NCBI GenBank assembly: GCA_036171915.1
Contig: JAVHRY010000138.1
Span: 2,890-66,889 of the forward strand
Direction of reading: 5' to 3'
DNA length: 64,000 nucleotides
Source of the DNA: Elusimicrobiales bacterium
GTDB taxonomy: Bacteria; Elusimicrobiota; Elusimicrobia; Elusimicrobiales; UBA9959
Positions 19,047 through 63,573 of this stretch are shown here, piece after piece (within the stretch, counting starts at the first letter, position 1; every line of letters starts with the position of its first letter). A model generated the notes under the pieces. The model saw nothing but the letters and a program-made list of their open reading frames with translations, ran no database searches and had not been told where the DNA came from. The translations under genes and the position numbers were made by a program.

Positions 19047-20861
<1,815 letters not shown>

Positions 20862-20955
20862 AAAGTCGTACAGTGTGAAGCGTAAAGAGCAAAGCTTAAA
20901 GAGCCATAAAGAACTCCTGAAAAATTCTTTACGCTTTCCGCTCCGCGCTTCCCGG

Positions 20956-22683: not shown

Positions 22684-22695
22684 AAATAGCTCCGC

Positions 22696-23816: not shown

Positions 23817-23834
23817 ACTCCTGGGGCTGTCACC

Positions 23835-24449: not shown

Positions 24450-24493
24450 AGCGGCCTCGCGTCCGCGGTCTTTGTGTTGGCCGGCGGGCCACG

Positions 24494-24970: not shown

Positions 24971-24982
24971 TGTTGCGGGTCC

Positions 24983-25390: not shown

Positions 25391-25423
25391 GGAACCAGGA
25401 CCCCATCCTTCATCTTTCAGCCT

Positions 25424-26287: not shown

Positions 26288-26295
26288 GGCGGACT

Positions 26296-27261: not shown

Positions 27262-27278
27262 GGAGTTGCCTGGAACGG

Positions 27279-27797: not shown

Positions 27798-28054
27798 CAT
27801 CGTATCCTCCATAAGCTGTGTCTAAAACTAAAACAAGGCCATTCCCCCCTTACAAAGCGGGAATGTCTTGTTAATCATATTTTATTACATTTCCGCGCGG
27901 GTTGGGGGACGAATCTTTAAGAGGCCTGCGAATCGGGGAGCGAATGCCGGAAAACGCTTATTTAAACGAATCAATCTTTATTTTTCCAATTCGCGGCCTT
28001 TAAAGCGGCTTCGGCCGGGTGACTATCCGCGCAGACCTGTGCTATCATTATCGC

Positions 28055-31447: not shown

Positions 31448-31500
31448 AAGACCATCTCCTGCCTTGAAACTCTTCCCGCTTTGCCCCTTCCGGTTGACGC

Positions 31501-37700: not shown

Positions 37701-40700
37701 CTCGTTTATGTACACGTTCGATATCTGCGGCTGCGCCGCGGCCTGGTTGGAGAGGGCGGAAATATTCCCGGCCTTGTCGCCGGTTTTTACGGCGAAATAA
37801 TAGGTCTTGCCCGTATCCAGGCCGTACAGCACGCGCGCCTCGGGCTGGCCGGCCGCGGCCGGGCTCCAGGCCTGCGCGTAGGTGCTGGCCGCGCTGAACA
37901 GCGCGTCGGTGGTGATCTGGAACGTGGCGGACTTCACTACATAGTAACCGCCGTTATCATCTCCGGCGGCGCCGTCGTCCCCGGGGGCGGCCCAGGACAG
38001 CTGCACGGAGCCGCGCACCGGGCCGGCGGCCGCGGCGAGGCCGGCTATGGCAGCGGGCGGCTGCGTATCTTTCAGCACCTTGAAAGCGTCCACCAGCGTA
38101 GTGGTGCTGAAAGCGTTGTCGATGGCGCGCACGCTTATATAGTTGGTGCCGTTCCCGAGCAGGGCGAAGCTGAGCGCCCAGTTGGCCTGCGAAAGGGACC
38201 CCAGGGTACCGGAAGAAATAACCGTCCAGTCCAGGGTCTGGATGCCGGTCTGCGAGGGCCCGCTGGAGGCTGAGTATTCCAGGCTCCTCAGCTGCGAACC
38301 TCCCACGTCGGCGAAGTCCACGTCGTAACCGGGCCCCTGGTCCGAATTGTGCCACGCGGAATCGTACCCGGCGTCCAGGTTATTGGTGATGGTCGGGGGC
38401 ACGGTATCCTTTTGGACGTTGAAAGCGTCCAGGATATAAGAAGAATAATTCCCGGCATTGTCGCGCGCCCGGACGGCCACGTAATTCTGGCCCTGCGGCA
38501 GCAGGTCGAAGGTACCCTGGGTAAGCGGCCAGTCGGCGGAATAGGAATCGGAGTTGATGCCGGAGACCTGGTCGGTCCAATCCTGCAGCAGCGTGCCGCC
38601 GCCGCCGGCCTGCGAGAAGATCCTGGTCTGGATGGACGCCAGGTGCGACCCGCCAGGATCCGTGGCGTCTATATTATAAGCAACGCGCGTATTGCACCAG
38701 TTGTCATCCCCCGGCTGGTTGTCTATGACCGTGGGCGGCACCGGGTCCTGCCTGTCGAAGGCCAGCGCCGCGGACTCGTGGTTGAAGTCGGACAGCGTCG
38801 TCGTGTGCTGGAAATTGGAGGAAGCGGTGGTGCCGGCCCAGGCCGAACCTCCCCACAGGGTGGTCTTAAGTATGCCCAGGGTATCGATGCCCATAGCCGT
38901 TATCTTGCTGGTATTAGGGTCGGGAACAAGCGCCAGCCAGTTTATATTCCCGGCGAAAGTGGTATTAGTGTTTACCGTAGCGCCCGAAAGCGTGGCCGGG
39001 GTCCAGGCGCCGTTAAGCCAGGTAGCGTAAGTCAGGCGCGTAGGATTGGCGGAGGTGACGGCCGCGGTCATGAACTTGCCGGACTGCGCCTCCCAGGCGG
39101 CGTCGGCGATGCGCGAGGCGTTGGCGCGCCCGGTGCCGGAAGTCGGTAGGGCCGACCAGGCCTCCACGGTAAGCGTAGGCCGCCAGATAGCCGCTGCCCA
39201 GGTGGAGGAGCCGTTTATGGAAGTCATTCCAAGGCGGTTCGTAGTAGGGTCGGCCGCCAGCCTGAGCCAGTTGCCGGCCGCGGCGATGGCCGGCCCGGTC
39301 TTGACGGTTTCCCAGGCCGCGGAAGTGGAACGCCAGATACGGTAGTTGGTGGTAACGCCGGTGCCCCAGAGCGCCAGCGCGTTGCCCGTCAGGGATTCCC
39401 AGTCGCCGTCGAAGCATTCCTCGGTGGCTATGGAAGCGGCGGTGGTGAGGTTCTGGTTGGACACCCAGGCGGAGCCGTTCCAGACGGCCGCGGTGATGTC
39501 GGAATTGGCGTCCAGCGCCATCAGCAGGATGCGGTTGGTGCCCGGCATGGGCTTCAGGCGCACCCAGTTGATAACCCCGGTTAGCGAGGCAAGCGGCAGC
39601 GAGGCCGGCGGCGCCACCCAGGCGGAAGAGGTGGCCGACCAGACCGCGTAGGTTACGGCGCCGGCGGCGCCGTTATAGTAGGCGGCCAGCATCCTGCCTG
39701 AAAGATTCTCTGGCGCCAGGTCGAACTTGCGCGTGGCCGAGCCGCCCGGAGCTGGCGCCGGAGAAGGCGTGACATCGGTCCAGGAGGAGTTTAGGCCGTC
39801 CCAGTTCAGGAACTTCAGGCTGTTGTCCGAAGCGAGGAAGCCGCCCAGTTTCGAGTTGGCCACCACGGACACGGATTTAAGTTCGGTCCAGAGCACATTG
39901 GCTGCCGTGGCCGCGGCATCCGTTTCGGCGTGCCAGGTTTCAGGAGTCCAGCTGCGGTATTTTGGGATAGTGGAAGCCCCCGAGCCGTAAACTATCATGC
40001 CGGCGGCCGCGCCCGCCGGAGTGGCGCTGGAGGTGGGCACGTTGGAAATGGCCCCCGCATTCCCCATCTCATCCACAGCTTTTATAGCGATAGAGTAGGT
40101 GGTGCCGGGAACTAGCCCGTCCATCACGCGGCTCTCGGCCTGGCCGTAGGCCAGAGGGATCCATTCCTGCGTGAAGGTGGAAACCGCGGGCGCGCTGAAA
40201 TTACCAGCGGTTATAAGCGCTGTAGAGTAGCGGACTATATAAGAGGTCGCCGTCCCGGCATTGGTAAAGCCTTTGACTCCTTCTCCCGGAGCTGTCCAGG
40301 CAAGCGCTATCTGGCCCTGGAAATCGGCCATGGCCGCGGAGAGGTCGGAGATGGCGCCGGGCGGGGTTTGGTCCACGCCTGCGTAGGTGGAGGTCATATT
40401 ACTGAGCGGCCCCATGTTACCGGCTTTGTCTACGCCCTCTACGGCGATATAATAGGTGACGCCCGCGGTAAGACCGCTCATGGTAAGCCCTTCCAGCGAA
40501 CCGGCGGCTTTCGGAGCCAGCGTGGATACGTACACCGAAGCGGCGTCAAAAGCGGCCTGATCGGCGAAGGCGTCGGTCCCATAGCGTATCAGGTAGTAGC
40601 TGGCATTGCCGATAAGCGCGTTATCCCCGGGAGCGTTCCATCTGGCGTACAGGTCGCCTTCGCCGGCCGGGCCGGTCTTGGCGAGGGAGGCCAGCGTGGT

Positions 40701-43700
40701 TATGGCGGAAGGCGGCACGGTATCTTTCAGTATATAGAAAACATCCACGGCGGCGGAGGAATGCCCGAGGGCGTCCCACGCGGTTACGGTTATATAGCTG
40801 GTACCCGGGGGCAGCAGCAGCCAGTCGGCGCCGTAAACTCCCCAGTCCTGCGTATAGGAGGACATGGGCGGCCCGGAGAAGATCGGCGTGGACGGCAGGA
40901 CCTGGCCGCCTGTATGCCCGGGGCCGGCCCAGGCCTCGTAGGCGGCGCTGGAAACGCCGATGCTGGCGTCGGCGAAATCTATGTTGAAGACCGGGCCCGG
41001 GTTGAGCCTGTACCAGGTGGTGTCCCCGTTCTGCAGGTCCGTAATGACCGGCGCGGCGGTGTCTTTCTTAACGTAGAAGACGTCCCCGGCTTCGGCCTGG
41101 TTGCCGGCGGCATCCCAGGCGCGCACCGAGATATAATTGAGGCCCGGCGCCAGGTTATTGAAATCCACTGGCCAGTCCGCGGTGTAGGCGGCGGTGGGCG
41201 CGGCGAAGATCTGCGTCCAGCCCTTCACCGGGGAACCTGTCTGGCCGGGCCCGGTCCAGGCGGCATAGGCGGCGCTGGACACCCCGGAGCCGCCGTCGGC
41301 GAAATCCACGTCGTAAAGAGATCCGGAGACGTCGCGCCAGGTATCGGACCCCGCCTGGTTGTCGTAGATAGAGGGCGCCGTCGTATCTTTCAGCACCCTG
41401 AACGCGTCCGTTATGGTGTAGGAACTGCCGGCATTGTCCCACACGCGCACGCTCACGTAATTGGTGGCGCTGTCGGCAAGGCCGTTCCAGATGCCCAGGG
41501 ACAGGGGCCAGGGCACGGAGTAAGTGTTGGCGTTGATGGCCGTGATATTATCCGTCCAGTCGAAGGCTGTTATGCCGGTGCCGCCGGGGCCGGTGCTGGC
41601 CTTAAGCTGGAACCTGGAGATCCGCGAGCCGCCGGTGTCGCCGAAAGAAACGCTGTAGGCGCCGCCGTTGGAATTCCGCCAGGAGAATTCGCCCGCCTGG
41701 CTGCTGACGGCCGTCGGGGGCGTGGTGTCTTTCTTTATAAAGAAAGCGTCCTTGAGCACCGCGGTGGAACCAGCTATATCCCAGGCGCGCACGCTTATGT
41801 AGTTCGTCACGCCCTCCCTGAGGGCGGCAAAATCCACCGGCCAGTCCGCCGTGTAGGACAGGCCGCCGCCCGGAGCGGCAATGGTGGTCCAGCCCTTCAC
41901 TCCGCCGTCGGCCGAAGCCTGCGCGGTGCTGGCGCTGTACTCAAAAGCAGCCAGCCCGCTCATGGCGTCGTTAAAGTCAAGGTTATAATTGCGGCCTGCA
42001 TTGAGCCAAGCGGCGTCGCCCCCGGCTTCTCCGTTAGCGAAGAAAGGCGTTGTCGTATCCTTGAGAATAAAGAACGGCTGGACTCCGTACGCAAAGGTGC
42101 TGCCTGCCGCGTCCCAGACCTGCACGGAAATATAATTGGTCCCCTCGCCCAGCAGGTCCCATAGCCCCTGGGGCACCGGCAGCCCGGAGGCGTAAGAGTC
42201 AGAGTTGATCCCGGTAAGGGCGTCGGACCAGTCAAAATACCACGGCCCCAGCGTGCCCGAGTTCGGCGAAGCCCGGAGCTGCACTTTAGAGAGCCTGGAG
42301 CCGCCGGTATCGGTAAAAGTCACGTTATAGACCGTTCCCGAGCTGCGGCGCCAGTAAGAGTCCCCGGCCTGGCTGCCGGCCAGCGCCGGCGGGGTGGTGT
42401 CCTTCAGCACGAAGAACGCGTCCACCACGGTGGAGGTGTTGCCTGCCACATCGTAAGCCCGCAGGGAAATGTAATTAGTCACGTTCTCCATCAGCAGCGT
42501 AAAGGAAGAGGCGGGAAGGGCGAAACCGCCGGTTAAAGAACCCGAATTTATCCCGGCCTGTATGACCGTCCAATTAAAGAGGTAGGGGCCGGTGCCGGCG
42601 TTAGTGGAAGCCCGCACCTCGAGCCCGGACAGCAGCGAGCCGCCGGCATCGGCCAGGTTTATGTTGTAAACGGTGCCCGGCCCGTTGCGCCAGGCCAGGT
42701 CCCCGCCGGCCGCGTTATTGGCCACCTGGGGCGCTACCGTATCCTTAAACACGTAGAACACATCGGGCAGTTCCGCGTAGAACCCGGCCTGGTTATAGGC
42801 GCGCACCGACACGTAGTTGTAGTAGCCGCTGAGCATGGCGTTAAAAGCCGCGGCGGGCAGGGGCCAGTCCGTAGAATAGGCATAAGCATTAAGCCCCGTA
42901 ACGGCGGCCGTCCAGCCGGAGGTGAACGGCCCCAGGTTGCCGGGCAGCGTGGAAGAGCGCACTTCGAAGCGGTCCAGCGGCGAACCGCCCAGCGCGGCCG
43001 CGGAAATTTTATAAAGCCCGTTATTAAGGGAGCGCCAGGCGTCGTCCCCCGTCTGATTATCGGTCAGTGAAACCGCCTGCGTGTCCTTGCGTATATAGAA
43101 TGCTCCGACCGTAGCGGAAGAGGAGCCCGCGCCGTCCCAGGCGCGTACGGAAATGTAGGAAGTGCCGCTTGAAAGCAGGCTCCACATCTGGCTGGTAAGC
43201 TGCCAGTCGGCGGTATAGGACTGGGCATTTATCCCGGAGGCCAGCGTGGTCCAGTCGAACAGCGGCGTACCGTGAGCCGCCGCGTCCGTGGTGGCCTTCA
43301 CCTGGAAGTAGTCCATCCCGGAACCGCCGGCATCCTGGAAATGCACGCTATACAAGCCGGTATTGGCGGAACGCCAGACATTATCCCCGGCCTGGCCGTT
43401 CAGCACGGAAGGCGGGGTAGTGTCCTTCCTGACTGAATACACGTCCGCCTGCTGGGCGCTGTTGCCGGCGTTATCGTAGACGCGCACCGACACGTAATTG
43501 GGGCCTTCGTTAAGCGTGCTGAAGTCCGGGCCCCAGGGCAGGCTGTAATAAGTAGCGTTAACGGTCAGGCGGTCTGTCCAGTCGCGTATCACCGTGCCGG
43601 TGCCGGCGGGGCCGGAGGTTATCCTGGTCTGGAACCGGTCTATCTTTGACCCGCCCAGGTCGGTAAAACCCACGTTATAGACAGGCCCCGGGTCGGCGGC

Positions 43701-46700
43701 GCGCCAGACATTGTCGTCGGGCTGGTTGTCCTGGATGGCCGGGTTGGTTATATCCTTGAGAATATAGAAGGCGTCGTTGGCCGTCCGGCTGCTGCCCAGC
43801 ATGTCGTAGGCGCGCACCGACACATAGTTCGTCGCGGTCTCCGCCAGGGTGAAGAAGTCCACCGGCCAATCCGCGGGATAAGAGGCCGCGCCGGCCGCCG
43901 TGAAGATCACGGTCCAGTCCTTGAGCACGGAGCCGCCGCCGGCCGGCTGAGAGGTTATGCGGTACTGCGCCGTGGCGAGCCCGGCGCCCAGGTCCTCAAA
44001 ATTCACGTCATAGAGCGTGCCCGAAGTCCTGCGCCAGACGTTATCCCCGGCCTGAACGACCGTCACAGAAGGGGCGGAGGTGTCTTTGCGCACCACGAAA
44101 GCGTCCGCGGCCGCGGAAGAAAGGGCTACGCGGTCGAAAGCGCGCACCGACACGTAGTTGAGGCCCTCTGCGAGCGCCGCGAAGTCCAGCGCCCAGTCGG
44201 CCGGCGCGTAAAGCGTGCCGGTGGAAGAGAGGAGGTCGGTCCAGTCCTTCAGCACCGTACCCGCCCCGGCCGGGGCCGAGGTCACGCGGTACTGCGCGGT
44301 AGTCACCCCTGAAGTCAGGTCGCGGAAATCCACGTTGAAGACCGCGCCCGGATCGGCCACCAGCCAGGCGGTGGGGCTGACCTGGTTGTTGCTTATCAGC
44401 GGGCTGGAGGTATCCACGGTGAAGGCCCTGGTGGCCATATCGGCGGAATAGTTGCCGGCGCGGTCGAACGCCCTGGCACGCCAGTAATAGTTGCCGTCGG
44501 CAACATTAGCCAGCGAGGCCTGCGAGACAGCCGTAACGGACGAAGCGTAAACAGAGGAGAAGTCCTGGTAAAGGGAGGCCTCGAGGACGTAGCCGGCCGC
44601 GCCTGACCGCAGGTCCGAAGCGTCGGTCCAGTCGAAGGCCGCGGTAGCCGTAGAATAGGCGGCCTTGTCGGCGGGAGAGACCGCGGCCACGGCGGAGGGC
44701 GGGGTAGTGTCTTTCAAAATATAGAACGCGTCCGCGGCCGCGGAGCTCTGCGCGAGCAGGTCGAAGGCGCGCACCGTGACGTAACCGGTAGCCCATTCCT
44801 GGAGCGCCGCGAAGTCCGCTGGCCAGGGCGCGGTATAGGAAGCCGCGCCGCCGGGCGAAGCTATGTCGGTCCAGTCCTTCAGCACGGCCCCGCCCTGCGC
44901 GGGCTGCGAGGTTATCCGGTATTGCGCCGTGGCGAGCCCCGAGAGCGCGTCGTAGAAAGACACATTATAAGCCTTGCCGGCCGCGCCCTGCCAGGCCGTA
45001 TCCCCGCCCTGGTTCAACCCGAGGGAAGGGGGCGAAGTATCCTTCAGCACGTAGAAAGCGTTATTAAGGACGGAAAAACTGGGCTGCAGGTCGTAGACGC
45101 GCAGGGAAATATAATTCTTGCCCGGCGCCAGGGCGTCGAAAACCGCCTGGGGCAGCGCCCAGTTGGCGGAATAAGCCGTGGAGCCGATATTCCAGGCCGC
45201 GCTGGTCCAGGCTACCAGGTAGGCGGGCGCGGCCGCGGAGGTGGCGGCGGTGACCTGGAAATAGTTCAGGTTATACCCGGACTCCGACTGGAAGTCCACG
45301 TTATAGAGCCCGTCGTTAAGATTGCGCCAGGCGTTGTCGCCGGCCTGTCCGTTTATGATGGAGGGCCCGGACCCTTCCTTGTATATGCTTAGCGCGTCGT
45401 TGTAGTAGGTGGTGTTCCCGGCCAGGTCGTAAGCGCGCACCGAGATATAGGAAGTCGCCAGGTTCGGCAGCGCCAGGTAGTTTACCGGCCAGGCCGCCGT
45501 ATAAGCGGGCGCGTTTATGTTGGCCGCTATATCGGTCCAGGGGATTATCTCCCCCCCGGCGCGGCCCGGCGCGGTCCAGGCCGAGTACTGGGCCTTGGAC
45601 AGCAGCGAGCCGCCGGTATCGGCAAAAGTTACGTTGACCGCGTCCACGTCCGCCTGGCTGGCGGCCAGCGGGATATTCGCCTGGTTATCGGCCACGGTGG
45701 GCGCCGTGGTGTCTTTATTTATGTAAAAAGCGTCGGGCAGCGTAGTAAGCTGGCCCAACCGGTCATAAACCCGCACCGACACATAATTGGTACCCTGGGC
45801 CAGCAGGTTCCAGTTAGCCGCCGAAAGCCCCCAGTTGGCGCCGTAAAGCTGGACATTAAGCCCGGAAGCGAGGTCCGACCAGTCCACCAGGGTAGCGCCG
45901 CCCTGCGCCGGCAGCGAATTGACCCGGTACTGTATGGTCGCCACGCCGGAGTAAAGGTCCCTGAAATCCACGTCGTAAACAGCGCCGGGATTAGCCGCGC
46001 GCCAGACGGCGTCCCCGGCCTGGTTATTGATAATGTCCGGGCCGTAAGTATCTTTGAGCACGGTGAACAAGTCGGCGCGGACCGCGGTGGAGCCGGCCAC
46101 GTCCCAGGCCCTGGCGGAGATATAATTCGTGCCGGCCCCGAGCAGGGCGAAATTCACGCCCCAGGGAACGGAGTAGGCCAGCCTGGGAGTGCCGGAGGAG
46201 ATAAGGGTCCAGGCCAGTGAATTGGCCCCGGTCTGTCCGGGCCCGCTCCAGGCCGAGTACTCCATCGTGTCCAGGCCGGTAAGGTTGTCGGCAAAGGTGA
46301 CGTTATAGGTAGCGCCGCCTCCGGAGTTGCGCCAGAAAGCTTCTCCGGACTGGTAGTCAGTTATAACAGGCGGGACCGTGTCCGCTATTACCCTGAACGA
46401 GGAACTATACCCGGAATAGTTGCCGGCATTATCTGCCGCCTTGACGCGCCAATAGTACGTGGTCCCGGCGGAGAGGGCGCCGGTCTGCTGCGAAACGGAA
46501 GGGGCGGCGGAGTAGGCCGGCGGGGCGAACCCGGCGGCGGTGGAAACCTCCAGCGAATAGCCATAGATGCCGGAAGAACCGTCCGAAGAATCCGACCAGT
46601 CGAACAGCGGCCCGAGCGTGGCGGCGGGCGCGAGATCGGAAGGAGAGAGAAGCGAAGGCGCAGACGGCGGCGTAGTGTCTTTTTTTACATAAAAGGCGTC

Positions 46701-49700
46701 GTCCTGCTCGGACATGTTGCCGGCATTGTCGTAAACACGCAACGAGACCCGGCCCACGCCTTCGGGCAGGGCAGTGAAGGTGGAGGCGGCCAGGGCCCAG
46801 TCATAGGGATAGGCGTTGGCGTTTATCCCGGAAACCGGCGCGTACCAGTCCGCCACCAGCGTCCCGGTCTGCGCCGGTCCGGTCGTCAGTTTTACCTCGA
46901 AGCGCGAAAGCGCCGATCCCCCGGCGTCGGCGAAGTGCACGTTGTAGGCACCGTTATTGACGGAACGCCAGGTATCGTCCCCGGACTGGCCATTGGCTAT
47001 GGACGGGGCCGTAATATCCTTTTTCACATAGAAGACGTCGCTGGCCGTGGTGGTGGCGCCGCTCACGTCCCAGACGCGCACTGAAACGTAGTTCGTGCCG
47101 TTCTCGGCGAGAGCGGAGAAAGCCACGGACCAGTCGGAGTTGTAGGCCGGGGAGTTTATGTTAGAAGCGATATAGGTCCAGTCCTTTATCAGCGTTCCGT
47201 TCTGCCCGGGCAGAGAGGTGACCTTATACTGGGCGGCGGAAAGGCCGGAGGCCCCGGCGTCCTCGAAATGCACATTATACAGGGTACCGGGCGCCGAACG
47301 CCAGGTGTCATCCCCGGCCTGGTTGTCGGCCACGCGCGGCGCGGCGGTGGATTTCCTAACATAGAACACGTCGCTAAGCGCCGAGGACAGGCCAGCGTTG
47401 TCGTAAGCCCTTACTGAGATGTAGTTCAGGCCGCTGGCCAGCGAGTCGAACACGGAAGCCGGCAGGGCCCAGCCGCCGGGGTAGAGATCCGCGCCTATGC
47501 CCGCGGCCACGGTGGTCCAGTCCGCCGTGACCAGGCCGGTCTGGGCGGCCCCGGTAGCGGCTTTCACCTGGAAGTAGGACAGCTTGGAACCGCCGGAATC
47601 GGCGAAGCTGACATCATAGAGCCCGGTGTTGGAGGCGCGCCAGGCGTCGTCGCCGGACTGGCTGTCGGTTATGCCGGGCGGGGTGGTGTCTTTTTTTATA
47701 TAGAAGACGTCGTCCAGCGCCGCGGAGTTGCCGGCGTTGTCGTAAACCCGGGCGGACACATAGGAAACGCCCTGCGGCAGGTTCAGCCAGGTGGAGATGC
47801 CCAGGTCGAAGTTGTCCGTATAGGCCGCGGCGTTGAGACCAGCGGCCCGGTCGAACCAGTTGGAGATAAGGCCGCCGGTCTGGTTCGGGCCGGACATTAT
47901 CTTAAGCTGGAAATTGGAGAGCAGCGACGCGCCCGTATCCTGGAAGTCCACGTCGAACTGCGCCCCGGGGACCGCGCGCCAGGCGTCGTCGCCGGGCTGG
48001 TTGTCCACTATGTTGGGGGCGTAGACGTCCTTTTTCACGTAGAACACGTCGGGGGCGGTAACGGTGGACCCCGCGGCGTCCCAGACCCGCACGGAGATGA
48101 AATTAGTGCCATCGCCTAGCAGGCCGAAATTAACGCCCCAGGCCGCGCCGTAGGCGTCGGCGCCCAGCGGCGTGGAGGTTATTATGGTCCACGGGGTAGC
48201 GTTGGCGCCGGTCAGCCCTGGGCCGGACCAGGCCGAGTATTCCAGCGATTCTATATGGGAACCGCCGGTATCGGCAAAAGCCACGTTATAGACCGCGCCG
48301 GGGTTGGAGGAATGCCAGGCGTTGTCCGCCGCCTGGTTGTTCTGCACCGAAGGCGGCGCGGTGTCGACGCGCACCGCCCAGGTAGAGGAATAGTTGCCGT
48401 AGTTGCCGGCATTATCCAGCGCGCGGGCGCGCCAGTAGTAGCCGCCGGAAGCCATAGTCTGCGAATACTGCGACAGCGTTTTCAGCGCGCTGGAGTAGAC
48501 GACGGCGAAATCGGAGGAGGTGGCGACATAGACCTCGTAGCCGTAGACGCCGGAACCGGAGTCGGAGGCGTCGCTCCAGTCAAAAGTCACGTTGGCGTTA
48601 TTGGTTATAGTGCCGCTGGCAGGGGAAACCGGCGCGACGGCGGAAGGCGCGGAGGTGTCCTTGCGCACATAAAAAACATCATTGAGCAGCGAAACGTTGC
48701 CTGCCCCGTCGTAAGCCCTGACGGAAACATAGGACTGGCCCTCGGGCAGCGCGGCCCAGGTGGAAGCCCCGAGCGCGAAATCGTCTGTGTAGGAAACCGC
48801 GTTTATCCCGGTCACCCTGTCGAACCAATTGGCCAGCACGGTGCCGCTCTGGTTGGGCCCGGAGGTTATCTTGAGCTGGAACCTGTCCAGCAGCGAGCCG
48901 CCCGCGTCGGCGAAATCCACGTTATAAAGAGTGCCGGCCGAGGCCAGCCAGGAATCGCCGCCGGGCTGGTTGTCCGTTATCACGGGCGCCTGCGCGTCCT
49001 TGCGGATATAGAACACGTCGTTGGTGACGGTAAGGTTGCCGGCGCGGTCATAAGACTGCACTGAAACGTAGTTGGTGCCGTTCTGCAGCAGCGCCCAATT
49101 GGCGGGAGAAAGGCTCCAGGGCGCCGCGTAAGAAGGCGAAGCAATGCCCGAAGCTATAGGCCCGGCCGCGAAGGGAACCAACTGCGCCCCGGTACGGCCG
49201 GTGGAACTGTAGACCGAGTAGCCGGCGGAATCCAGCAGGGAGCCGCCAGCGTCCGTAAAGCCCACGGCGTAGGCCGTGCCCGAAGCGTTGCGCCAGGCAT
49301 TGTCCCCGCTCTGGCCGTTTACCGTCACCGGCAGCACAGTATCCACCAGCACGGTATAGGCGGAGGTATAAGCGGAACCGTTCCCGACCAGGTCCGCGGC
49401 GCGCGCGCGCCAGTAATACAGCGCGCTGGGAAGAACCGCCGAAGTGGACTCCGAGACCGAAGGCGAAGCGCTGTAGACCGGGGTAGTGAAATCGACAGAA
49501 GTCGCCACCTGAAGCTCGTAGTTGTTTACGCCGCTGGCCAGGTCCGAAGAATTTCCCCAATCGAAGTAGACAACCGGGTTTTTAAGGAAAGCCCCATCGG
49601 CGGGCAAAAGCAGCGCGGGTACTGTAGGCGGCGTAGTGTCTTTCTTGACATAGAAAGCGTCCGTCACGGGATTAAGGGACACATTATCCGAGCCGTCAGT

Positions 49701-52700: not shown

Positions 52701-55700
52701 ACCGGCGCTCAAAGCCCAATCCGTTACGTAGGAGTTCAGCCCGGAGGGCGAAGGTGAAATATCGGTCCAGGCCGCGATCTCCGTCCCGGCCCGGCCGGTG
52801 GAGGACCAGATATTGTACTGGGCCTTCGAAAGCCTGGAACCGCCGGCATCGTCGAAATGCACATTATAGACGCCGGTGTTGGCGGGACGCCAGACATTAT
52901 CCCCGGCCTGGTTATTCGCCGCGGCGGGCGGCACTGTATCCTTCAGCACATAGAAAACGTCGGTACTTACCGCCGCGTTCCCGGCCAGGTCGTAAGCGCG
53001 CGCCGAGATATAGGCCGTGGCGCCGGAATTGAGCGCGGAGAAATCCACGCCCCAGGGGTTGGCGTAGGCCGGGGCGGAGATGCCGGCCGCTATATCCGTC
53101 CAGCCCACCAGGTCGCCGGAAGCCGTGCCCGGCGCCGAGGAGGCGGAATACTGCGCCTTGGAAAGCAGGGAGAAGCCGTCGGTGAAGCCGACGTTGTAGA
53201 CAGCTCCCGGGTCCGAGGACCGCCAGTTGTTATCGCCGGGCTGGTTGTTCGCAAAAAGCGGCGCCTCGGTATCCTTCTTAATGTAGAACACGTCGTTGGC
53301 CGTGGTAGTTGTGCCGGCCAGGTTCCAGGCGCGCACGCTGACATAGTTAAAACTGGATTTCAAGGCCGAGAAATCCACGGGCCAGTCGGCCGTGTAGTCG
53401 GCGGCGTTGATGTTTACGGCGATATTAGTCCAGTCCTTAAGGACGGCGCCGCCCTGGGAGCCAGCCGAGGTGACCTTGTACTGCGCCGCTGAAAGCAAAG
53501 AGCCGCCGGCGGCGCTGAAATCCACGTTATAGAGCGTACCGGGAGAATTGCGCCAGGCGGCGTCCCCGGTCAGGTTTTTCACCACCGACGGGGCGGTAAG
53601 GTCAACGCTGGTAACGGCTTCCGGGGCGGTATCGGTGCCGGGCGGGTCGGTTTCATCCCTGTTACCCGCCTTATCGTAGACAATAAGCCTGAAGCCGGCC
53701 GCGCCGCCGGAAGGGGCGGTGAAAGCGATGGGTGAGAAATTGAAAGTGGAACCGAACTGGGTCCAGGCATACGGGACCTGCGTCGCATACGTGTAGTAGA
53801 GCTTCACATACTGCACCCCGGCGGGTCCCGCGTCGGCAGCTGAATAAGGCACGCTGAAATTCAGGGACCCGGTATATGCCGGAGGAGAGACGGCGCCGGA
53901 CGGGTTCTGCGTATCTTTAAGCACATAGAAAGCGTCGCCCAGGTCGGCGTAGGCGCCGGCGTTATCATAAACGCGCAGGGAAATATAATTTGTGCCGGGC
54001 AGCAGCAGCTGCCACAGGCCGGGCGCCATGGCCAACGGTCCGGGATAGGAAGAGGAATCCAGGCCGGTTACATTATCGGTCCAGCCGAAGGCCGAAGCGC
54101 CGGTGCCGGCGGTGCCGGTGCTGGCTTTCAACTGCACTTTCGAAAGCAGGGAGCCGCCCAGGTCTGTGAAAGCCACGCTATAACCGCCGCTGTCGGAGTT
54201 CCTCCAGACGGAATCCCCGGCCTGGCTGTTATTGACGGCCGGGGGAACCGTGTCCTTAAGCACGTAAAAAGCGTCGGTCAGCGTGGAGCTGGACCCGGCA
54301 TTATCTAAGGCCGCCACCGACACATAAGCGGTGACCCCGCTCCGGATGGCGTCCCAGAGGCCCGCGGTAAGCGGCCAGGGAGCGGAAGCTGAGGCGGCGT
54401 TCAGGCCGGTCAGCACCGGTGTCCAATCCGCCAGGACCGTCCCGGTCTGCCCCGTGCCGGTAGTTATCTTCACCTGCACCTGGTCCAGCAGCGAACCTCC
54501 GGCGTCGGCAAAACGCACGTCGTAGACGGCTGAATTGGCCGAGCGCCAGGCCCCGTCGCCGCCCTGGTAATTATTTATGACCGGCGGCGTAACGTCCTTT
54601 CGCACGTAGAAAACGTCTGAGGTCTCCCTGTCGTTGCCTGCCTTGTCGTAAGCGCGCACGGACACATAGGTCTGGCCTTCCGGCAAGGCGGACCAAAGGC
54701 CATAAGTCAGCGTCCAGGGGCCGGGATACGCGGAAGAATTTATGCCAAAGGCGACATCCGTCCAATCCGCTATCACCGTCCCCAGCTGGTTCTGGCCGGA
54801 AACCAGCCTGACCTGGAACTTATCCAGCAGGGAACCGCCGGCGTCGGCGAACCCCACATTATAAAGCGTGCCGGAGGAATTGCGCCAGGCGTCGTCGCCG
54901 GGCTGGTTGTCGGCGATCGTCGGCATGGTTACGTCCTTGAACACCCTAAAGACGTCGCTGGATACGGAGACGAGGTTCCGCTGGTCGTAAGCCCGCACGG
55001 AAATATAGTTGGTGACGTTCTCCGCCAGGGTGGAGAAGAGCACGGACCAGTTATCGGTATAATAAGTGGGATAGCCGGTCAGGACGTCCACAGTCTGCCA
55101 GGCACTTATGGGATAAGCGAGCGCCGGCGCCGTGCTTACCCGGTACTGCAGCGTCGAAAGGCCCGAGGCCCTGTCGAAGAAATCCACGTTATATGCCGCG
55201 CCGGGGGAACCCTGCCAGGCATTATCCCCGGCCTGGTTATTTACTATCACGGGCGGGGTGGTGTCCTTCAATACGTAGAAGGCGTCCTGCGCGTTTGCCG
55301 AGAGTCCGCCGCGGTCGAAAACCCGCACAGTAACATAGTTGGGCCCTTCCACGGCGGAGGCTAAATCTACGCCCCAATTGGCCGTGTAACTCTTTGTGCC
55401 GCCGGGGATATTGAAGATATCTGTCCAATCCTTCAGCAGCGCGCCGGCCTGCCCGGGCTGGGAATACAGGCGGTACTGCGCGGTTGCCGCGCCGGACTCC
55501 AGATCGCGGAAGTCCACGTCGTAGACCGCGCCGGGGTCGGTAAGCCGCCAAATATCGTCCCCGGCCTGGTTCACCACCACCTCTGGCTGCGCCGTATCTT
55601 TCCAGACCGTGAAAGCGTCGTAAGTGCTGCTGGAGAGCAGGGCCGCGTCGAAAACTTTCACCGAGATATAGGCGGTAACGCCGCTGGGGATGGAATCCCA

Positions 55701-58700
55701 GATGTCGGCCTGCAGCGGCCAGTCCGCGGTGTAGCTGCCGCCCGAGAGGTTTCCGGAGTCCGTCCAGTCGAGCAGATAAGGCGCGTAGTTGCCGGTATGC
55801 GTGGACGCCCTCAGCTGGTAGCGCAGCAGGCCGGACTCCTGGCCCGGATCGGTAAAGTCCACGTTATAGAGCCCCGTATTCCCGGAAAGATAGGCGGACG
55901 CCGCGGGCTGGTTATTGGCGAAAACCGGCGGCGTGGTATCCTTGCGCACGTAGAAAACGTCGTTGCGGGAGGAGGATAACCCTGCCTGGTCGTAGGCCCG
56001 CACGCTCACGTAGCCGCTGGTCCAGCTCTGGAGCGCGGCAAAATCTACAGGCCAATTCGTGGTATAAGAGGCCTGCCCCGCCGGGGTAGTAAAAATGTCG
56101 GTCCAGTCCTTTATCAGGATCCCCGTTTGAAGCGTGCCGGTGCTGATCCTGTACTGCGCCTGGGTCAGGCGGGAACCGGCGTCCGCGAAGTCCACGTTAT
56201 ATACAGAGCCGGCTGCGGAGCGCCAGACGTCGTCGCCGTTCTGCAGGTCGCTGATAGCCGGCGGCGTGGTATCTTTTTTTACATAGAACACATCTTCCAG
56301 CGTCATACTGGTGCCGGCCACGTTCCAGGCGCGCACAGTTATATAGTTGGTGGTTTCGTAGAGCGAATTATAGAAACCCGCCGGCAGCGCCCAATCGGCA
56401 TAATACGACTGGCCGGGGAGATCCCCTGCTTTTGTGAAGTCGGCAGTCATTACGCCGGTGCGGCCCGGCTGCGTCCAAGCCTGGATGGAGAAGGAACTCA
56501 GGTCCACGCCGGGATCGTTGCTTTCGAAATCCACGTTGTAAAAGCCGTTGTCGGAAGTGCGCCACACGCTGTCGCCTGACTGGTTGACTATTATGGATAT
56601 GGGGTGAGTAGTCCGGAACACCTTGAAGGCGTCCAGGTACGTGGAGGTATTGCCCGCCAGGTCCGTGGCGCGGACCGAGAAATAGTTGGTCGCCGGCAGC
56701 AGTTCGAGCGCGTAGAAGTCCACGTCCCAGTTCTGCGTGTAATAAGTGGCCCCGGCAAGCGTGGCGATATTGGTCCAGTCCTTCACCGGCGTCCCTGCTC
56801 CGGCGGGAGACGTGGACACCATGTACTGCGGGGCGGCTATACCCGAGCCGCCGCCGTCGAAGAAGTCCACATTGAAGATGGCCGCTGGATTTACGGAATA
56901 AGGTCCGAAGCCTTTGGTGGGCGTACTGACTATTACGATACTGGGGGCCACGGTGTCTTTCAGCACATAAAAGGCGTCGTTCACCTGCGCGGGGTTGTCA
57001 GCCTTATCGTAAGCCCGCACGCTGACATACCCGGTTGTACCGCTGGGAATGGCAAGGAAGTCCACGCCCCAGTTAGCGGTATATGCGGCCACACCTGCGG
57101 GCGCGGAAACGATATTGGTCCAGTCCCTGATCACCGTGCCGCTCTGGGCGGGCAGGGACGTAATGCGGTACTGCGCGGTGGTAAGGCCCGCGGTCAGGTC
57201 GCCGAAATCCACGTTATAGACGGCGCCGGGATCGGAGTTGTGCCAGGTATTGTCGCCGGCCTGGTTGTCGGTTATGGTCGGGGAGACATTGTCCTTTAAC
57301 ACGTAGAACACGTCCGGGAGGGAGGCGGAATGCCCCAGGCCGTCCACGGCGGCCACGCTAATATAGTTGGTGCCCTGCGCGAGCAGGTTGAAATCCACGG
57401 TCCAGGGAGCGGCGAACGAAGGCCCCGCCGCGCCGGGAATGACCGTGGGCGTTACCGGGTTAGTCCCGGTGAGCCCCGGGCCGCTCCAGGCTTCGTAGCT
57501 GACGGAGGCCAGGCCGGAATCCGCGTCGCCGAAACTCACGGTGTAGGTTGTGCCGCCAAAGCGCCGCCAGGTGTTGTCCCCTGACTGCCCGTCGGTAATA
57601 ACGGGGACCGACGTATCTTTCAGCACGTAGAACACGTCGGAAAGCGCGGTCGTGGAGCCGGCGTAATCCATGGCGCGCACGGAGATATAATTGGTGCCGG
57701 ACCTGAGGAGGCTCCAGACCGGGGCCGGCAGCTGCCAGCCGCCAGGGTAAGAAACCGCGTCTATGCCGGTGACGGCGTCGGTCCAGTCCGCCGCCAGCGT
57801 GCCGGTCTGCGCTGGACCGGTGGCAGCTTTCACCTGGAACCCGGAAAGCAGCGAACCGCCGATATCGGCGAAAGACACATTGTAAACCCCGGTATTGGCG
57901 TCGCGCCAGTTGGCGTCGCCGGGCTGGCTGTCGGTTACGGACGGGGCGGACGTGTCCTTAAGTATATAGAAAACATCGTCCTTCCCCTGCTGGTTGGCGG
58001 CGTTATCGTTCACGCGCACGGAAACATAAGAGATGCCGGCCGGGAGCGCGTTCCACTGCGCCTGGGTCAGTTTCCAGGGACCGGGATAAGAAGCTGAATT
58101 TATAGAACCCTGCTGCACGGCCCAGTCCTGCACCAGGGTTCCGGTCTGGCCGGAGCCGGTCGTTATTTTAATTTCAAAGTTTGAAAGCAGGGAGCCGCCG
58201 GCGTCGGTAAAGCCGACGGCATAAACGGTGCCGGAGGAATTGCGCCAGTTGTCGTCACCGAACTGGTTATCCGCCACTACCGGCAGAGTTTTGTCCTTGC
58301 TTATATAGAAAGCGTCGGCGTAGGTGGAGGTGTTGCCGGCCAGGTCGGTGAAGCGCACCGAGACATAGTTGGTAGCGGCCCCTTCGGCGAGCGCAGCGAA
58401 ATCCACGGACCAGGGGGAGGTGTAGGAAGCCGCGCCCAGCGGCGGGGCTGCGATAGGGTTCCAGCCCTTGCGCGGCGTTCCCTTCTGGCCCGGCTCCGAC
58501 CAGACGGAGTACTCCACGGTATTAAGCAATGACCCGCCGGTGTCGTAGAACTTCACGTCGTAAAGCTTGCCCGGGTCTTTCTGCCAGGCCGCGTCGCCGC
58601 CGGCCTGGAGGTTCTGCGCGTATGGCGCGGTAGTGTCCTTGTAAACGTAGAACACGTCGTTCAGCGCGGTGGTGGTGCCGGCCACGTCCCAGGCGCGCAC

Positions 58701-61700
58701 GGAAATATAATTTATCCCTTCGGCCAGCGCCGGCCAGGAAGAAACGGAGATCCCCCAGGGGCCGGGGTAGGAAGAAAGGTTGGCCGGGCCCGAAGAGATG
58801 AAGGTCCAGTCGATCTTTTTAACCCCGGTCTGCCCGGCCCCGGGATATGCCGTGTACTGGATGCTGTCCAGCTTCGAGCCGCCGGCGTCGGCGAAAGCGA
58901 CGTTGTAGATGCCGCCCGGGTTGGCGTTGCGCCAGGCGTCGTCCCCGGCCTGCGCGTCGGTGATAACGACCGGCACGGTATCCTTCAGCACGTAGAACAG
59001 GTCGTTGACGGAAGTGGAGGAGTTATTGACATTGTCGAAAACGCGCACGCTGACGTAACCGGTGGTGCCGCTGGGGATATTGTCCCAGACCGCGGTCGGC
59101 AGGGCCCAGGCCGAACCGTAGCCGGCGGAGTTTATGCCGGTCGCCACGCTGGTCCAGTCGGAAAGCAAAGTCCCGGTCTGCGAAGGGCCGGAGGTAACCT
59201 TGACCTGGAAATAGGACAAAAGCGAACCGCCAGCGTCGTTGAAGGTTATGTTGTACAGGCCGTTATTGGAATTGCGCCAGCGCGTATCCCCGGCCTGGCC
59301 ATCCGTTATTGTCGGGGTAGACAGGTCCACCAGCAGGGAACGGTAGGCGCTGAAAGCCGAGACGTTCCCCGCCGTGTCGTTCGACGCCGCGCGCCAGTAA
59401 TAAGTAGTCTGCGCGGCCAGCGGCACGAACGCCGCCGAGACCGCCGGCTGGCTGGAATACGAGATGGTGGTAAAATCAGTGGAAGTGGCCAATTGAAGCA
59501 GGTAATTGGCGGTGCGAGAAGCGCTATCGGCCGAGTCGCCCCAGTCGAAAGCCAGGTTAGCCAGGTTGGTCTTGTAGCCGTCGGCCGGTGAAATAAGCGA
59601 GGGAACTGCGGGCGGGGTGGTGTCCTTCAATATCCGGAAAGCGTCGACAACGCTTGTGGTATTACCGGCCACGTCGTAGAATTCCACGCTGATATAGTTG
59701 GTATTGTCGCCGCCCAGGCTGGCGAAAGCCACGGGCCAATCCGCGGTGTAGGCGGCGCCGGTCACCCCGGCTATGGTGGTGGAGGCTACCAGTACCGGCG
59801 GGGTCCCGCCGGGATTGGCGCGCGCCGCGTACTTGGCCCCGGCCAGGCGGGAGGCGCCGTCGGAGAAGTCGAAGTTGTAATTCCTGCCGGTATTGCGCCA
59901 GACGGAATCCCCGCCGGCCTCGCCGTTGACGTAAGCCGGCGGCGTGGTGTCCTTGAGCACCTTGAAAGCGTCGGTGATGGTGGTGGTATTGCCGGCGATG
60001 TCGTACAGTTCGATGGAAATATAGTTGGTAGCGTCGCCGGCCAGCCCGGCGAAGTTCAGCGCCCAGTCCGTGGCATAGGAAGCGCCGGACACGCCGGGGA
60101 TGGCGGTGGTGGAGATTTGCATGGCCCCGGCCCCGCCCGCCGCGGTCCGCGCCGCGTAAACCGCCCCGGCCAGCCTGGAATAGGGATCGGCGAAATCCAC
60201 GTTGTAGCTCTTTCCGATATTGCGCCAGACAAGGTCTCCCCCCGCCTCCCCGTTAGTGAAAGTGGGGGCCACGGTATCTTTCAGCACCTTGAAAGCGTCC
60301 GAAAGCGTTACGGTGTTAGAGGAGTAATCCACGGCCCGCACCGAGATATAGTTGGTGGTCCAGCTGGCGAGGCTGGTCCAGAAACCGGCTGGCAGGGCCC
60401 AGTCCGTATAATAATAGGTGGCGTTCACGTTTAATACGGCGTCCACCCAGCCGCCGCCGAAGTCCGTGCCGGTCTGGCCCGTGCCGGAAGTGGCGCGCAC
60501 CTGGAACTTGGAGATCAGCGAGCCGCCGGCGTCGTCGAAGTCCACGTTGTAAACGCCGTTATTAGTATTGCGCCACACCTGGTCCCCAGTCCCCATCCTG
60601 CCGGTGATGACCGGCGTGGAAAGGTCCACCCTGAAAGCGCGCGTGGCCGACCACAGGCCGGTATTGCCGGCGTTGTCCAGCGCGCGCACGCGCCAGAAAT
60701 ACGGGTTCTGCGCCAGGCCCGCCGGCGCGGCCGCGGCGGCCAGCGGGGCGGAACTGAAGGTAACGGTTGTAAAATCTGCCGCGGTCGCCAGCTGCACCTC
60801 GTAATTCTTCAGGCCGGACCCGTCGATGTCGGCAACCGCTTCCCAGCTCAGCGCCGGGGAACCGTTGTTGAGGTTGGCGTTATTTACCGGCAGGATGGCG
60901 GCCATGGCCGGGGCGGGAGGGCTGGAATAGTCCACGCCGAAGGAAGGGGCGGCAAAGTTTATCCAGCCGCCGCGGCCGCCGTCGCCCAGCGCCGCCACAC
61001 GCCATTTATACTGGCTGCCGGAAGTGATATTTGCCGAGCTGAGGTTTACGGTCAGCGGGCTGCCGCCGTAAACGCTGAAGCCGCCGGTAGAAAGGCCTAT
61101 GCCGTCGAAGGCCGACGCGTTAGGCTTGATCTCCGCCACAAGCGCCAAATTATCCGCGTTCATGGAACTGGCCAGCACGCCCTCGAAGGTGATAGCGCGG
61201 TTATTTGTCCAGCCCCCGGTAGTTAATCCCGAGCCGCCGGCATACTGCGCAGGACTTACCGGCAATTTGGGGTAGGGCACAAAAGTGTAGGTCACCCCCA
61301 CGCGGCCCCCCAGCACGCTATTGGCGCTGCCGGCATAATTCACCTTCACCAGGGTAGTGGTGCTGGTGACGGGCGACATGTTCTGGTAGAACCTCGAAAT
61401 AGTGGTGGTTTCTGTAATAGAGCGGTGATTAACGGTCTGCGGGCCGTTGCCGTTGAAATTCACCGTATCAGTGAAGGCAGCGCCGCCCGTGGAAAGCACG
61501 TTGGCGTAGACATAGGTCCCGCGCATGGTGTCGGTGCCGTACGCCTCGGGGTGATAAAGACCGACGTAGGAAGTGTATGCCTTGGCCGTATTTACTGTAT
61601 TGGAGCCGGCAAGCGCTTCGTAGTACGTGGTATGGGCGGCTTCGTTGGCGGAAGTGTAGGTTATTATCAGCTCGCCGCCCGGCGCCCCGGAAGCCGCGTT

Positions 61701-63004: not shown

Positions 63005-63445
63005 CTATTCTTCAGCCGCGCCGCCCTGGTCTTTAAACTTGCCCGGTTTTTTTTCTTCTTTGCGCCGTTCCTCTTCCTTCATCATTTCCACTATGTCCTG
63101 CACGGTCAGGCCGACCAGCCAGTGGTTAACCTCCCCGCGCAGCGTCTCGTAAAGTTTTATGGAAACTTCTTTTTTAGAGGCGTCCGGGGCGCCGTTGAAG
63201 GTAAAGGCCTCCATCAGCTGCCACACGCTTATATCGTCCAGGTCCTTGCGCAGGCGGTAGCCCTTGCCCTTCTGCGATTCCACAAAACCGGCGTGCACCA
63301 GCGCCTGCAGCACCTTGTTGCAGTACGGCGCCGGCAAGCCCTGGAAACGGGAAATCTCCGCCACCTGGTTCCAGGAACCGCCATTGTTCTGCCCAAGGTA
63401 ATGCAGGCAGGCCAGGCCGTAAGCTAAGGTGCGGTTCATCTTCAT
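63005..63445 (-). CDS. Rrf2 family transcriptional regulator
   Basis: Start is set at ATG 63445 (MKMNRTLAYGLACLHYLGQNNGGSWNQVAEISRFQGLPAPYCNKVLQALVHAGFVESQKGKGYRL), a winged-HTH typical of Rrf2/BadM. No three-Cys Fe-S ligand cluster is visible. It has an acidic/basic tail (EEERRKEEKK). Its stop is 14 nt upstream of the giant-gene ATG. Confidence 0.8.
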   Translation of the reverse strand: MKMNRTLAYGLACLHYLGQNNGGSWNQVAEISRFQGLPAPYCNKVLQALVHAGFVESQKGKGYRLRKDLDDISVWQLMEAFTFNGAPDASKKEVSIKLYETLRGEVNHWLVGLTVQDIVEMMKEEERRKEEKKPGKFKDQGGAAEE

Positions 63446-63495
63446 AAAATTATCATAAAAAGGTTTTTTTCCTAAGTTCAGTCCAGCAAACAACA

Positions 63496-63522
63496 GCCAT
63501 TGGATACTTTCTATCCAATGGC
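63496..63522. promoter_or_regulatory. perfect palindrome GCCATTGGATA-N5-TATCCAATGGC; candidate Rrf2 operator
   Basis: The 11-bp arms at 63496..63506 and 63512..63522 are exact reverse complements. It lies between the candidate promoter (63574..63601) and the Rrf2 start (63445). Confidence 0.35.
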
Positions 63523-63573
63523 ATCCCAAAAAATCGGGCGGCTTAAGACAACAGAGCCGTCCTTGATATCAAT

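Follow-up and report, generated by a model that had tools for sequence, protein, structure and literature searches.

What is encoded by a stretch of bacterial DNA in which one sharply bounded unit recurs about 50 times, and what could such an array be for? We addressed these questions in 64,000 nucleotides of the genome of an Elusimicrobiales bacterium (GenBank assembly GCA_036171915.1, contig JAVHRY010000138.1, positions 2,890 to 66,889). This whole stretch is referred to below as the window, and all coordinates are window positions unless stated otherwise. A sequence-only reading of the window had noticed about 50 copies of an unassigned module of ~110 residues between positions 38064 and 60630, with a KDT-x-P-P boundary, and had proposed that the module is a beta-sandwich stalk domain of a possibly undescribed family. 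We find that a single giant protein contains 50 full-length copies of this module, that no curated family model in Pfam or NCBIfam recognizes any one copy at its own threshold, and that the modules, together with ~12 domains of the fibronectin type III (FN3) type, probably make up the long, stiff stalk, or extender, of a giant cell-surface fiber or adhesin that is secreted.

Fifty modules in a single giant protein

The whole module region is enclosed by a single minus-strand open reading frame (ORF; 34779 to 62990) in the ORF list, and its translation of 9,403 residues has no internal stop codon, the only stop being the terminal one. A hidden Markov model (HMM) of the module, built iteratively from one unit and run on the giant protein, gives 61 matches, 50 of which are full length (97 to 144 bits each) and lie between residues 789 and 8305, while the other 11 are partial matches to FN3-like domains interspersed among the modules. 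The modules are 107 to 114 residues long, mostly abut their neighbors with a one-residue gap, and cover ~60% of the protein. The array and the blocks into which the module HMM resolves it are as follows.

38076..60626, minus strand: array region with 50 full-length 112-residue modules (module HMM coordinates, alignments, and structure models)
59631-60626, minus strand: module block (this and the following blocks from the module HMM)
53922-59330, minus strand: module block
51936-53606, minus strand: module block
49647-49988, minus strand: module block
48666-49346, minus strand: module block
46686-48368, minus strand: module block
44718-46385, minus strand: module block
40731-44414, minus strand: module block
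38076-38750, minus strand: module block

Alignment of the 50 modules with MAFFT (alignment A1) gives the consensus KDTxxPxIxxNQxGDxxWRxxxGxxYNVxFxDxGGSxL...DWT...SYxxxWxL...GTNYVSVRAxDxAG...DAFYV, in which conservation is 90% or higher at every one of the positions D2, P6, W18, Y26, F30, D32, Y71, W75, Y91, D98, D108, and F110. The copy number, the spacing, the KDTxxP start, and the recurrence of invariant Trp, Tyr, and Asp positions described in the sequence-only reading are all borne out by these results. The boundary string that it had seen on the plus strand is the reverse complement of the sequence encoding ...FYVLKD; with up to 4 mismatches allowed, 32 copies of this string lie within the region and one lies elsewhere, compared with 0.45 occurrences expected in shuffled sequence, and all five positions that had been cited as examples coincide with module starts.

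Pairwise identity among the modules averages 40% (range, 24 to 67%), which indicates that the array is not the product of a recent amplification; adjacent copies are 41% identical. The proposal that there are two subtypes held only in part. A 3-residue indel after W75 divides the modules into 29 long and 21 short forms, and it is associated, imperfectly, with the presence of D.GGS as opposed to the one-residue-shorter D..SGL (Fisher P = 0.002). However, identity is 41 to 43% within these subtypes and 39% between them, and long and short forms are interleaved along the protein. Clustering shows no clean clades despite the correlated indel and motif, and we therefore rejected a clean two-subtype model.

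Relation of the module to named domain families

Each of the 50 modules was scanned singly against Pfam-A (2025 copy) and NCBIfam (June 2026). No Pfam-A family reaches its gathering score on any single module. The best Pfam matches, to Big_13 (PF19077), Glucodextran_B (PF09136), Ig_Rha78A_N (PF25788), and Big_3_3 (PF13750), involve 3 to 4 of the 50 modules each, at E values of 0.004 or higher. Ig_Rha78A_N matches three modules below threshold (best E value, 0.0065), and its significant matches fall on the interspersed ~100-residue domains rather than on modules. The fn3 model (PF00041) matches none of the 50 modules at an E value of ≤1, the fn3 matches of the giant protein lying on other domains. 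In NCBIfam, Ca_tandemer (NF033510) matches 4 modules at E values of 0.019 or higher, and the OmpL47-type model NF047446 matches 16 modules at an E value of <1 (best E value, 1.7e-6), with the first module scoring 19.6 bits against a cutoff of 40. A profile search of all PDB sequences with the module returned only noise (E ≥ 0.065).

Although no single copy is recognized, several of these families score well on the protein as a whole, and the module could accordingly be a divergent member of a named family (NF047446, Big_3_3, Big_13, or Ig_Rha78A_N), which would leave a stalk function unaffected. The two halves of the giant protein score 47.9 and 86.7 bits with NF047446, above its whole-protein cutoff, and Big_3_3, Big_13, and Glucodextran_B also pass their gathering thresholds cumulatively. 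In each case, however, the score is a sum. The NF047446 total is made up of many weak partial matches, of which 0 to 1 stretches are significant alone, and no single stretch passes for the other three families. The NF047446 matches place profile positions 4 to 60 of 68 on module residues 49 to 105 of 112, in a slid register and with different boundaries; Big_3_3 (positions 9 to 144) runs out of phase, spanning one and a quarter modules. What Big_3_3, Big_13, and Glucodextran_B have in common with the module is the motif of the C-terminal F-G hairpin; their matches cover only the last third of the profile or are out of phase. The weak library matches are explained by this hairpin, the C-terminal part of the profiles, which the module shares with FN3-like immunoglobulin (Ig)-like domains.

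Comparison of alignments with hhalign shows where the module belongs. The module (A1) aligns with the interspersed FN3-like domains (A3) at 94.4% probability (E value, 9e-8; 90 columns, 1 to 106 versus 1 to 92), and these in turn align with the classical fn3 domains of the same protein (A4) at 97.3% (E value, 2.4e-11; 93 columns). Directly compared with the classical fn3 domains, the module aligns at 84% (E value, 7.6e-6) over the last, C-terminal 42 columns only. With the repeats of P0083 (A5), a distant carrier from Acidimicrobiia with ~21 repeats, the module aligns at 97.7% (E value, 2.3e-12; 91 columns, 2 to 106 versus 2 to 99). In the module register, the P0083 repeats read DTxxP / W / F-x-D-xx-SG / W-T / Y-x-SVRA-x-D-xx-GN. 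As a whole protein, P0083 reaches the NF047446 cutoff and cumulatively exceeds those of Ig_Rha78A_N and Ig_J_second, which is a further point in favor of membership in a named family.

The same order of motifs is found in the FN3-like bacterial Ig domains generally (NF047446, PF25788, the six interspersed domains, and the P0083 repeats): a DTxxP linker, an N-terminal loop with a Trp, F-x-D-x(2,3)-S-G/L following strand B, a central W-T, and an F-G hairpin with Y-x-S-V-R-A-x-D-x-A-G-N. The module is set apart from all of these by ~10 to 15 additional residues, inserted in the C'-E and E-F regions and including a short helix, and by near-invariant residues of its own, Y26, Y71, and W75, together with the hallmark W18. 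The module is thus an enlarged offshoot of the FN3-like "DxxSG...DxAGN" bacterial Ig domains. The near-full-length profile similarity (90 to 91 columns) and the Ig-like sandwich predicted by the structure model (see below) place it in the FN3/E-set Ig-like superfamily, and this homology makes it a new family within a known superfamily and not a new fold.

Existing annotation is consistent with this assignment. Homologs are named by NCBI as hypothetical, lamin tail domain-containing, fibronectin type III domain-containing, or PQQ-binding-like beta-propeller repeat proteins. These names derive from flanking domains only, OmpL47-type, Big, or Ig_Rha78A_N names are never used, and precomputed Pfam matches on the homologs are merely "faint." We found no description of the module in the literature on giant genes, Elusimicrobia, OmpL47, and type IX secretion systems (T9SS). 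The searches for a named family that would match confidently and with identical boundaries gave none. We think it unlikely that the module is a member of one of the named families, and the suggestion that its family is undescribed stands. The accompanying impression that it matches neither FN3 nor Big signatures is correct insofar as no single-module cutoff is reached, but it missed the remote FN3-like homology.

Predicted structure of single and paired modules

An AlphaFold2 model of a single module, for which the alignment consisted of the 50 paralogs of this one protein, has a pLDDT (predicted local distance difference test) of 92.7 and a predicted TM-score (pTM) of 0.85. It contains about seven strands (~7-10, 28-31, 38-46, 55-68 [probably a hairpin], 91-98, and 103-111) and one short helix (79-83), and it confidently predicts an Ig-like beta-sandwich, as the sequence-only reading had supposed. 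A Foldseek search with the single module gives no match at an E value of ≤1e-3 in PDB or BFVD, with TM-scores of 0.62 or lower. Its nearest fold neighbors are generic Ig/FN3 domains: C3/CVF MG domains, titin FN3, the sulfite dehydrogenase C-terminal domain, the HPI S-layer protein, SiiE, and phage tail Ig domains.

The model of two consecutive modules, for which the alignment consisted of 41 adjacent pairs, has a pLDDT of 96.4 and a pTM of 0.86. In this model the last (G) strand, residues 103 to 114, runs through the FYVxK boundary, and adjacent modules are predicted to be joined by a fixed, defined junction. The two-module model has 87 PDB matches at an E value of ≤1e-3. The best is the Ca2+-binding SiiE (2yn5; E value, 2.6e-7; TMq, 0.45), followed by the MhLap tetra-tandemer (6xi3; E value, 9e-6), both of which are Ca2+-stiffened extender arrays of giant adhesins, so that the closest structural analogues fit the stalk role suggested earlier.

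Age of the array and conservation of module order

The nearest ortholog in the collections searched is P0012 (HBA59975.1), a partial protein of 6,986 residues from an Elusimicrobia metagenome-assembled genome, which is collinear with the giant protein of the window. Within the range covered by P0012, the best match is the module of the same ordinal number for 43 of 44 modules. Identity to the best match in P0012 averages 73% over all 50 modules, compared with 53% for the next-best paralog. Because module order is shared, the array must predate the split of the two species, and the sequences indicate that each module copy is maintained individually, with number and order conserved. This positional conservation argues that module number and order are under selection, as expected for a stalk in which they determine length. 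We rejected an assembly or repeat artifact and a fast-evolving repeat as explanations of the array, given the ~40% identity among copies and the module-by-module match in order with P0012.

Distribution of the module family

Searched exhaustively with the module HMM, a set of 1.84 billion representative proteins yields 756 carriers at an E value of ≤1e-3 and 205 at ≤1e-30. Many of them are giant (>4,000 residues), for example, a protein of 6,986 residues with 46 matching stretches and one of 5,973 residues with 34. The family is found mainly in Elusimicrobiota and allied candidate phyla: named carriers come from Elusimicrobiota, Endomicrobiales, "Candidatus Firestonebacteria," Omnitrophota, and Margulisbacteria/Riflemargulisbacteria, with a more distant form in Acidimicrobiia. 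Among 859 modules from 159 other proteins, D2, P6, W18, F30, D32, S36, L38, W59, Y71, W75, Y91, D98, and F110 are at least 80% conserved. An alignment-based homolog search gave 11 short fragments, none of them annotated by Pfam, in which the KDTxxP boundary recurs; it is also present in an AT-rich Margulisbacteria protein. A curated model of the module would annotate most of the length of giant proteins in Elusimicrobiota and related uncultured phyla.

Domain layout of the giant protein

Besides the modules, the giant protein contains the following parts, listed from the N terminus to the C terminus where they occur singly.

34779..62990, minus strand: giant ORF, 9,403 residues, containing all modules
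62868..62990, minus strand: Sec-type signal peptide, residues 1 to 41 (...LLSAPQAQA|E; from the translation, with the cleavage site inferred from the AXA pattern)
60918..62867, minus strand: N-terminal "head" of ~650 residues, conserved in homologs
59331-59627, 60627-60917, 49347-49643, 48369-48662, 46386-46682, and 44415-44714, minus strand: six interspersed FN3-like (Ig_Rha78A_N-type) domains of ~100 residues each (alignment A3; Pfam Ig_Rha78A_N E value, 2.8e-20)
51270-51932 (pair), 40035-40727 (pair), and 37737-38072 (single), minus strand: five classical fn3 domains (Pfam fn3; alignment A4)
49989..51269, minus strand: W-rich insert A, ~430 residues, paralog of insert B
38751..40034, minus strand: W-rich insert B, ~430 residues, paralog of insert A
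37014..37733, minus strand: two lamin-tail domains (LTD), residues 8420 to 8522 and 8562 to 8659 (Pfam LTD E values, 6.9e-16 and 7.4e-13, both above cutoff)
35811-36830, minus strand: unassigned 340-residue stretch that follows the second LTD and precedes the propeller
34782..35810, minus strand: C-terminal PQQ_2/BamB-like beta-propeller, residues ~9061 to 9403 (Pfam PQQ_2, 47.5 bits [cutoff, 27.6]; Beta-prop_ACSF4, 98 bits)

As read from the translation, the signal peptide lacks a lipobox Cys, and no transmembrane-like segment was found in the protein. The protein is strongly acidic (D, 6.8%; E, 1.5%; K, 2.2%; R, 3.1%; K plus R, 5.3%) and has 7 Cys residues. The head has no match in Pfam and PDB searches and is retained at the N terminus of 11 homologs at 32 to 54% identity. 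By eye, it appears to consist of about four units of ~150 residues, each closing with I-T-Y-E/T; BLAST self-comparison did not find these repeats. Each of the six interspersed FN3-like domains also begins with KDTxPP. The two W-rich inserts are each preceded by two classical fn3 domains, are 31% identical to each other (E value, 6e-42), have no Pfam, NCBIfam, or PDB sequence match, and recur in 24 homologs; a propeller-like ligand-binding domain is one possibility for them. The C-terminal end, like the head and the inserts, is kept in many homologs. A 105-residue domain (residues 3024 to 3128; 53607-53921, minus strand) breaks the module array and matches neither the module nor the FN3 models. 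Pfam and PDB searches with this domain and with residues 8721 to 9060 were empty.

Neighboring genes

The giant gene has the following neighbors.

63005..63529, minus strand: Rrf2-family transcriptional regulator, directly upstream (Pfam Rrf2 E value, 1.7e-17)
31501..34716, minus strand: directly downstream, PQQ-type beta-propeller protein that has its own signal peptide and, at the C terminus, a Por_Secre_tail (T9SS-type) sorting domain (PQQ_2 E value, 1.7e-31; Por_Secre_tail, 39.5 bits [cutoff, 27])
29909..31504, minus strand: PorV/UPF0164-like outer-membrane barrel, next gene downstream (Pfam PorV, 27.7 bits [cutoff, 27]; weak UPF0164)

The propeller gene has a probable ATG start at 34716. 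On the other side, the Rrf2 gene ends 15 bp before the start codon of the giant gene, on the same strand, and the regulator may control the fiber operon.

The downstream arrangement recurs elsewhere. Of four homolog loci with readable neighboring genes (L001 to L004), 3 have a gene for a propeller with a Por_Secre_tail domain directly downstream of the homolog; these three are metagenome-assembled genomes of different lineages.

L001, Elusimicrobiota: cassette at 15248-18349
L002, Firestonebacteria: cassette at 18252-23041
L003, Endomicrobiales: cassette at 12931-17064

A UPF0164/PorV-like barrel then follows in two of these three, L002 and L003; in L001, a 323-residue product at the barrel position gives no family match. 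The fourth locus (ENA ERZ25039590 contig_66531, 4558-29863) has three giant module proteins in a row (4,620, 2,464, and at least 2,757 residues), and among the genes read there is neither an LTD nor a propeller and sorting-domain partner gene. Directly upstream of these three proteins is a cluster of radical SAM/SPASM, PqqD, and HD-domain genes, a set resembling maturases of ribosomally synthesized and posttranslationally modified peptides.

A second pair of this general kind is encoded in the window at 1372-6020 on the plus strand, where a 1,209-residue protein rich in fn3/Pur_ac_phosph_N domains is immediately followed by a 330-residue UPF0164/PorV-like barrel. This pair suggests that, in this bacterium, large surface proteins of the Ig/FN3 type have PorV-like barrels as dedicated partners. 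Elsewhere in the window, on the minus strand, are a 1,275-residue hybrid sensor kinase (9350-13177) with five PAS domains, HisKA/HATPase, and three receiver domains and an ordinary-looking housekeeping cluster (20956-27812) that encodes an S30AE ribosome hibernation factor, HPr kinase, RapZ, mannose-type phosphotransferase system (PTS) components IIC and IID, and PTS enzyme I, and then LepA and signal peptidase I. This LepA, for which an exact look-up gave no record, has at most 93% identity to GTDB species representatives; its top matches are all from Elusimicrobia metagenome-assembled genomes, and it places the window in the Elusimicrobiales.

A probable stalk for a giant surface fiber, and other possible functions

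How would an array of this kind work? We propose that the 50 Ig-like, FN3-derived sandwiches, strung head to tail with the ~12 FN3-type domains, would form a rigid stalk. Single extender domains span 3.3 to 5 nm in SiiE and MpIBP. By analogy with these proteins, 62 sandwich domains would give a stalk of ~0.2 to 0.3 µm. Ig/FN3 topology puts the N terminus and the B-C and F-G loops at one pole of the domain and the C terminus at the other, and for this reason D2 (linker), D32 (B-C loop), and D98 (F-G loop) are predicted to meet D108 of the preceding module at the junction, forming an acidic cluster. These Asp residues would probably bind Ca2+ and, with the Pro-rich KDTxPP linker, might stiffen the rod as in the extenders of RTX adhesins. 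Beta-sandwiches of diverse kinds make up such extenders, which have Ca2+ in their linkers and many conserved Asp residues; rigidification by Ca2+ is used in SiiE, MpIBP, MhLap, and AhLap, and Pro-rich linkers are an alternative stiffening device (PMC7493085). The KDTxPP linker may offer both features. The N-terminal head and the inserts would be the ligand-binding parts. The C-terminal propeller end would be held at the outer membrane through the neighboring propeller/sorting-domain protein and the PorV-like barrel; this mode of anchoring is speculation, although it is consistent with the synteny.

Several observations weigh against this proposal or limit it. Pfam, NCBIfam, and a transmembrane segment scan detect neither a T9SS sorting domain nor an RTX or type I secretion system (T1SS) signal nor a membrane anchor in the giant protein itself. 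That the four Asp residues would cluster is deduced from topology and not from model coordinates, and one of them, D108, is less than 80% conserved across the 859 modules of the wider family. The alignments used for structure prediction were composed of paralogous repeats of one protein, so that confidence in the junction may be inflated. Finally, the TM-scores of the two-module model to SiiE and MhLap are low (0.35 to 0.45), which means that the analogy with these extenders is architectural and is not proof of membership.

Two other functions have to be considered, neither of which finds much positive support. The array could be a multivalent lectin or carbohydrate-binding device, in which W18, W59, W75, Y26, Y71, and Y91 form a glycan-binding face for high-avidity attachment to a polysaccharide or to the envelope of another cell. 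It is true that three Trp and three Tyr residues are near-invariant in a domain of 112 residues and that W18 is modeled in a lower-confidence N-terminal loop and not in a core strand. There are also the weak cumulative matches to two accessory domains of glycoside hydrolases, Glucodextran_B and Ig_Rha78A_N, as well as a report of an Elusimicrobia population that was strongly enriched on cellulose particles and lacked cellulases (PMC7031533). However, no carbohydrate-binding module or lectin family or fold was matched in Pfam, NCBIfam, or Foldseek searches, most of the conserved aromatic residues are predicted to lie in strands in the alternating pattern of a sandwich core, and the named-family matches cover only the F-G hairpin motif. 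Positional conservation of the 50 copies, moreover, is equally expected of a spacer. A glycan-binding array therefore seems to us distinctly improbable.

Alternatively, the sandwiches might pack laterally with other molecules into a two-dimensional coat, as a component of a surface layer or sheath. Deinococcus radiodurans HPI (8cka) is indeed among the better fold matches of both the single and the double module (TMq, 0.47 to 0.48), but a match of this kind is generic for tandem Ig domains. To our knowledge, all known S-layer proteins are far shorter than the giant protein. A linear chain of 62 domains with distinct head and tail domains is a better fit to a fiber, and the conserved operon partners are not S-layer-like. 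A role in a surface coat is thus highly improbable, and we retain the stalk of a surface fiber as the probable function of the array.

A more far-reaching version of the fiber proposal is that the array is part of a conserved but undescribed surface-fiber system in Elusimicrobiota and allied candidate phyla (Firestonebacteria and Endomicrobiales), in which a >0.2-µm Ca2+-stiffened fiber, made of an Ig-like domain family of its own, is docked to the outer membrane by propeller-propeller contact with a sorting-domain partner on a dedicated PorV/UPF0164-like barrel. We regard a system of this scope as decidedly doubtful. If it did exist, it would represent a PorV-style shuttle or anchor module outside the Bacteroidota, possibly without a canonical T9SS. 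Module-bearing giants are also present in Omnitrophota and Margulisbacteria. The positional conservation of the modules and the recurring cassette suggest how little-known bacteria build and anchor long surface fibers, which could serve in attachment to particles or to other cells, and the downstream cassette (a propeller with a sorting domain and then a PorV-like barrel) merits separate study.

Comparison with known surface protein systems

The array involves no new fold or principle, since tandem Ig-like extenders are a well-known solution, and the value of the module lies in annotation and in the recurring downstream cassette. Two known systems invite comparison, and membership of the giant protein in either one, as T9SS cargo or as an RTX adhesin, was rejected because the defining terminal signals are absent.

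In Bacteroidota T9SS cargo/shuttle pairs, which combine proteins that have a C-terminal sorting domain with PorV, the likeness is to the downstream genes, a Por_Secre_tail gene and then a PorV/UPF0164-like barrel. The giant protein differs from a T9SS cargo in that it ends in a propeller and does not itself carry the sorting domain. The host differs as well: T9SS is described in reviews as a Bacteroidota system (PMC10202324), whereas here the host belongs to the Elusimicrobiales, in which the likeness is known from the cassette genes.

The extenders of giant RTX adhesins (Salmonella SiiE, 2yn3/2yn5; Marinobacter MhLap, 6xi3; and Marinomonas MpIBP region II) likewise consist of dozens of tandem ~100-residue beta-sandwiches with short linkers and are likewise acidic and Asp-rich, and the predicted two-module structure (pTM, 0.86), with SiiE and MhLap as its best matches, has the form of such a tandem beta-sandwich rod. 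In contrast to these adhesins, the giant protein lacks RTX repeats as well as a T1SS signal at its C terminus, and in their place it has an N-terminal Sec signal and an LTD-LTD-propeller end. Its modules are also far more divergent, with ~40% identity compared with 65 to 100% among the repeats of MhLap, AhLap, and MpIBP (PMC7493085). RTX adhesins use their extenders to project distal binding domains (PMC7493085), and by analogy we propose the same role for the stalk of the giant protein.

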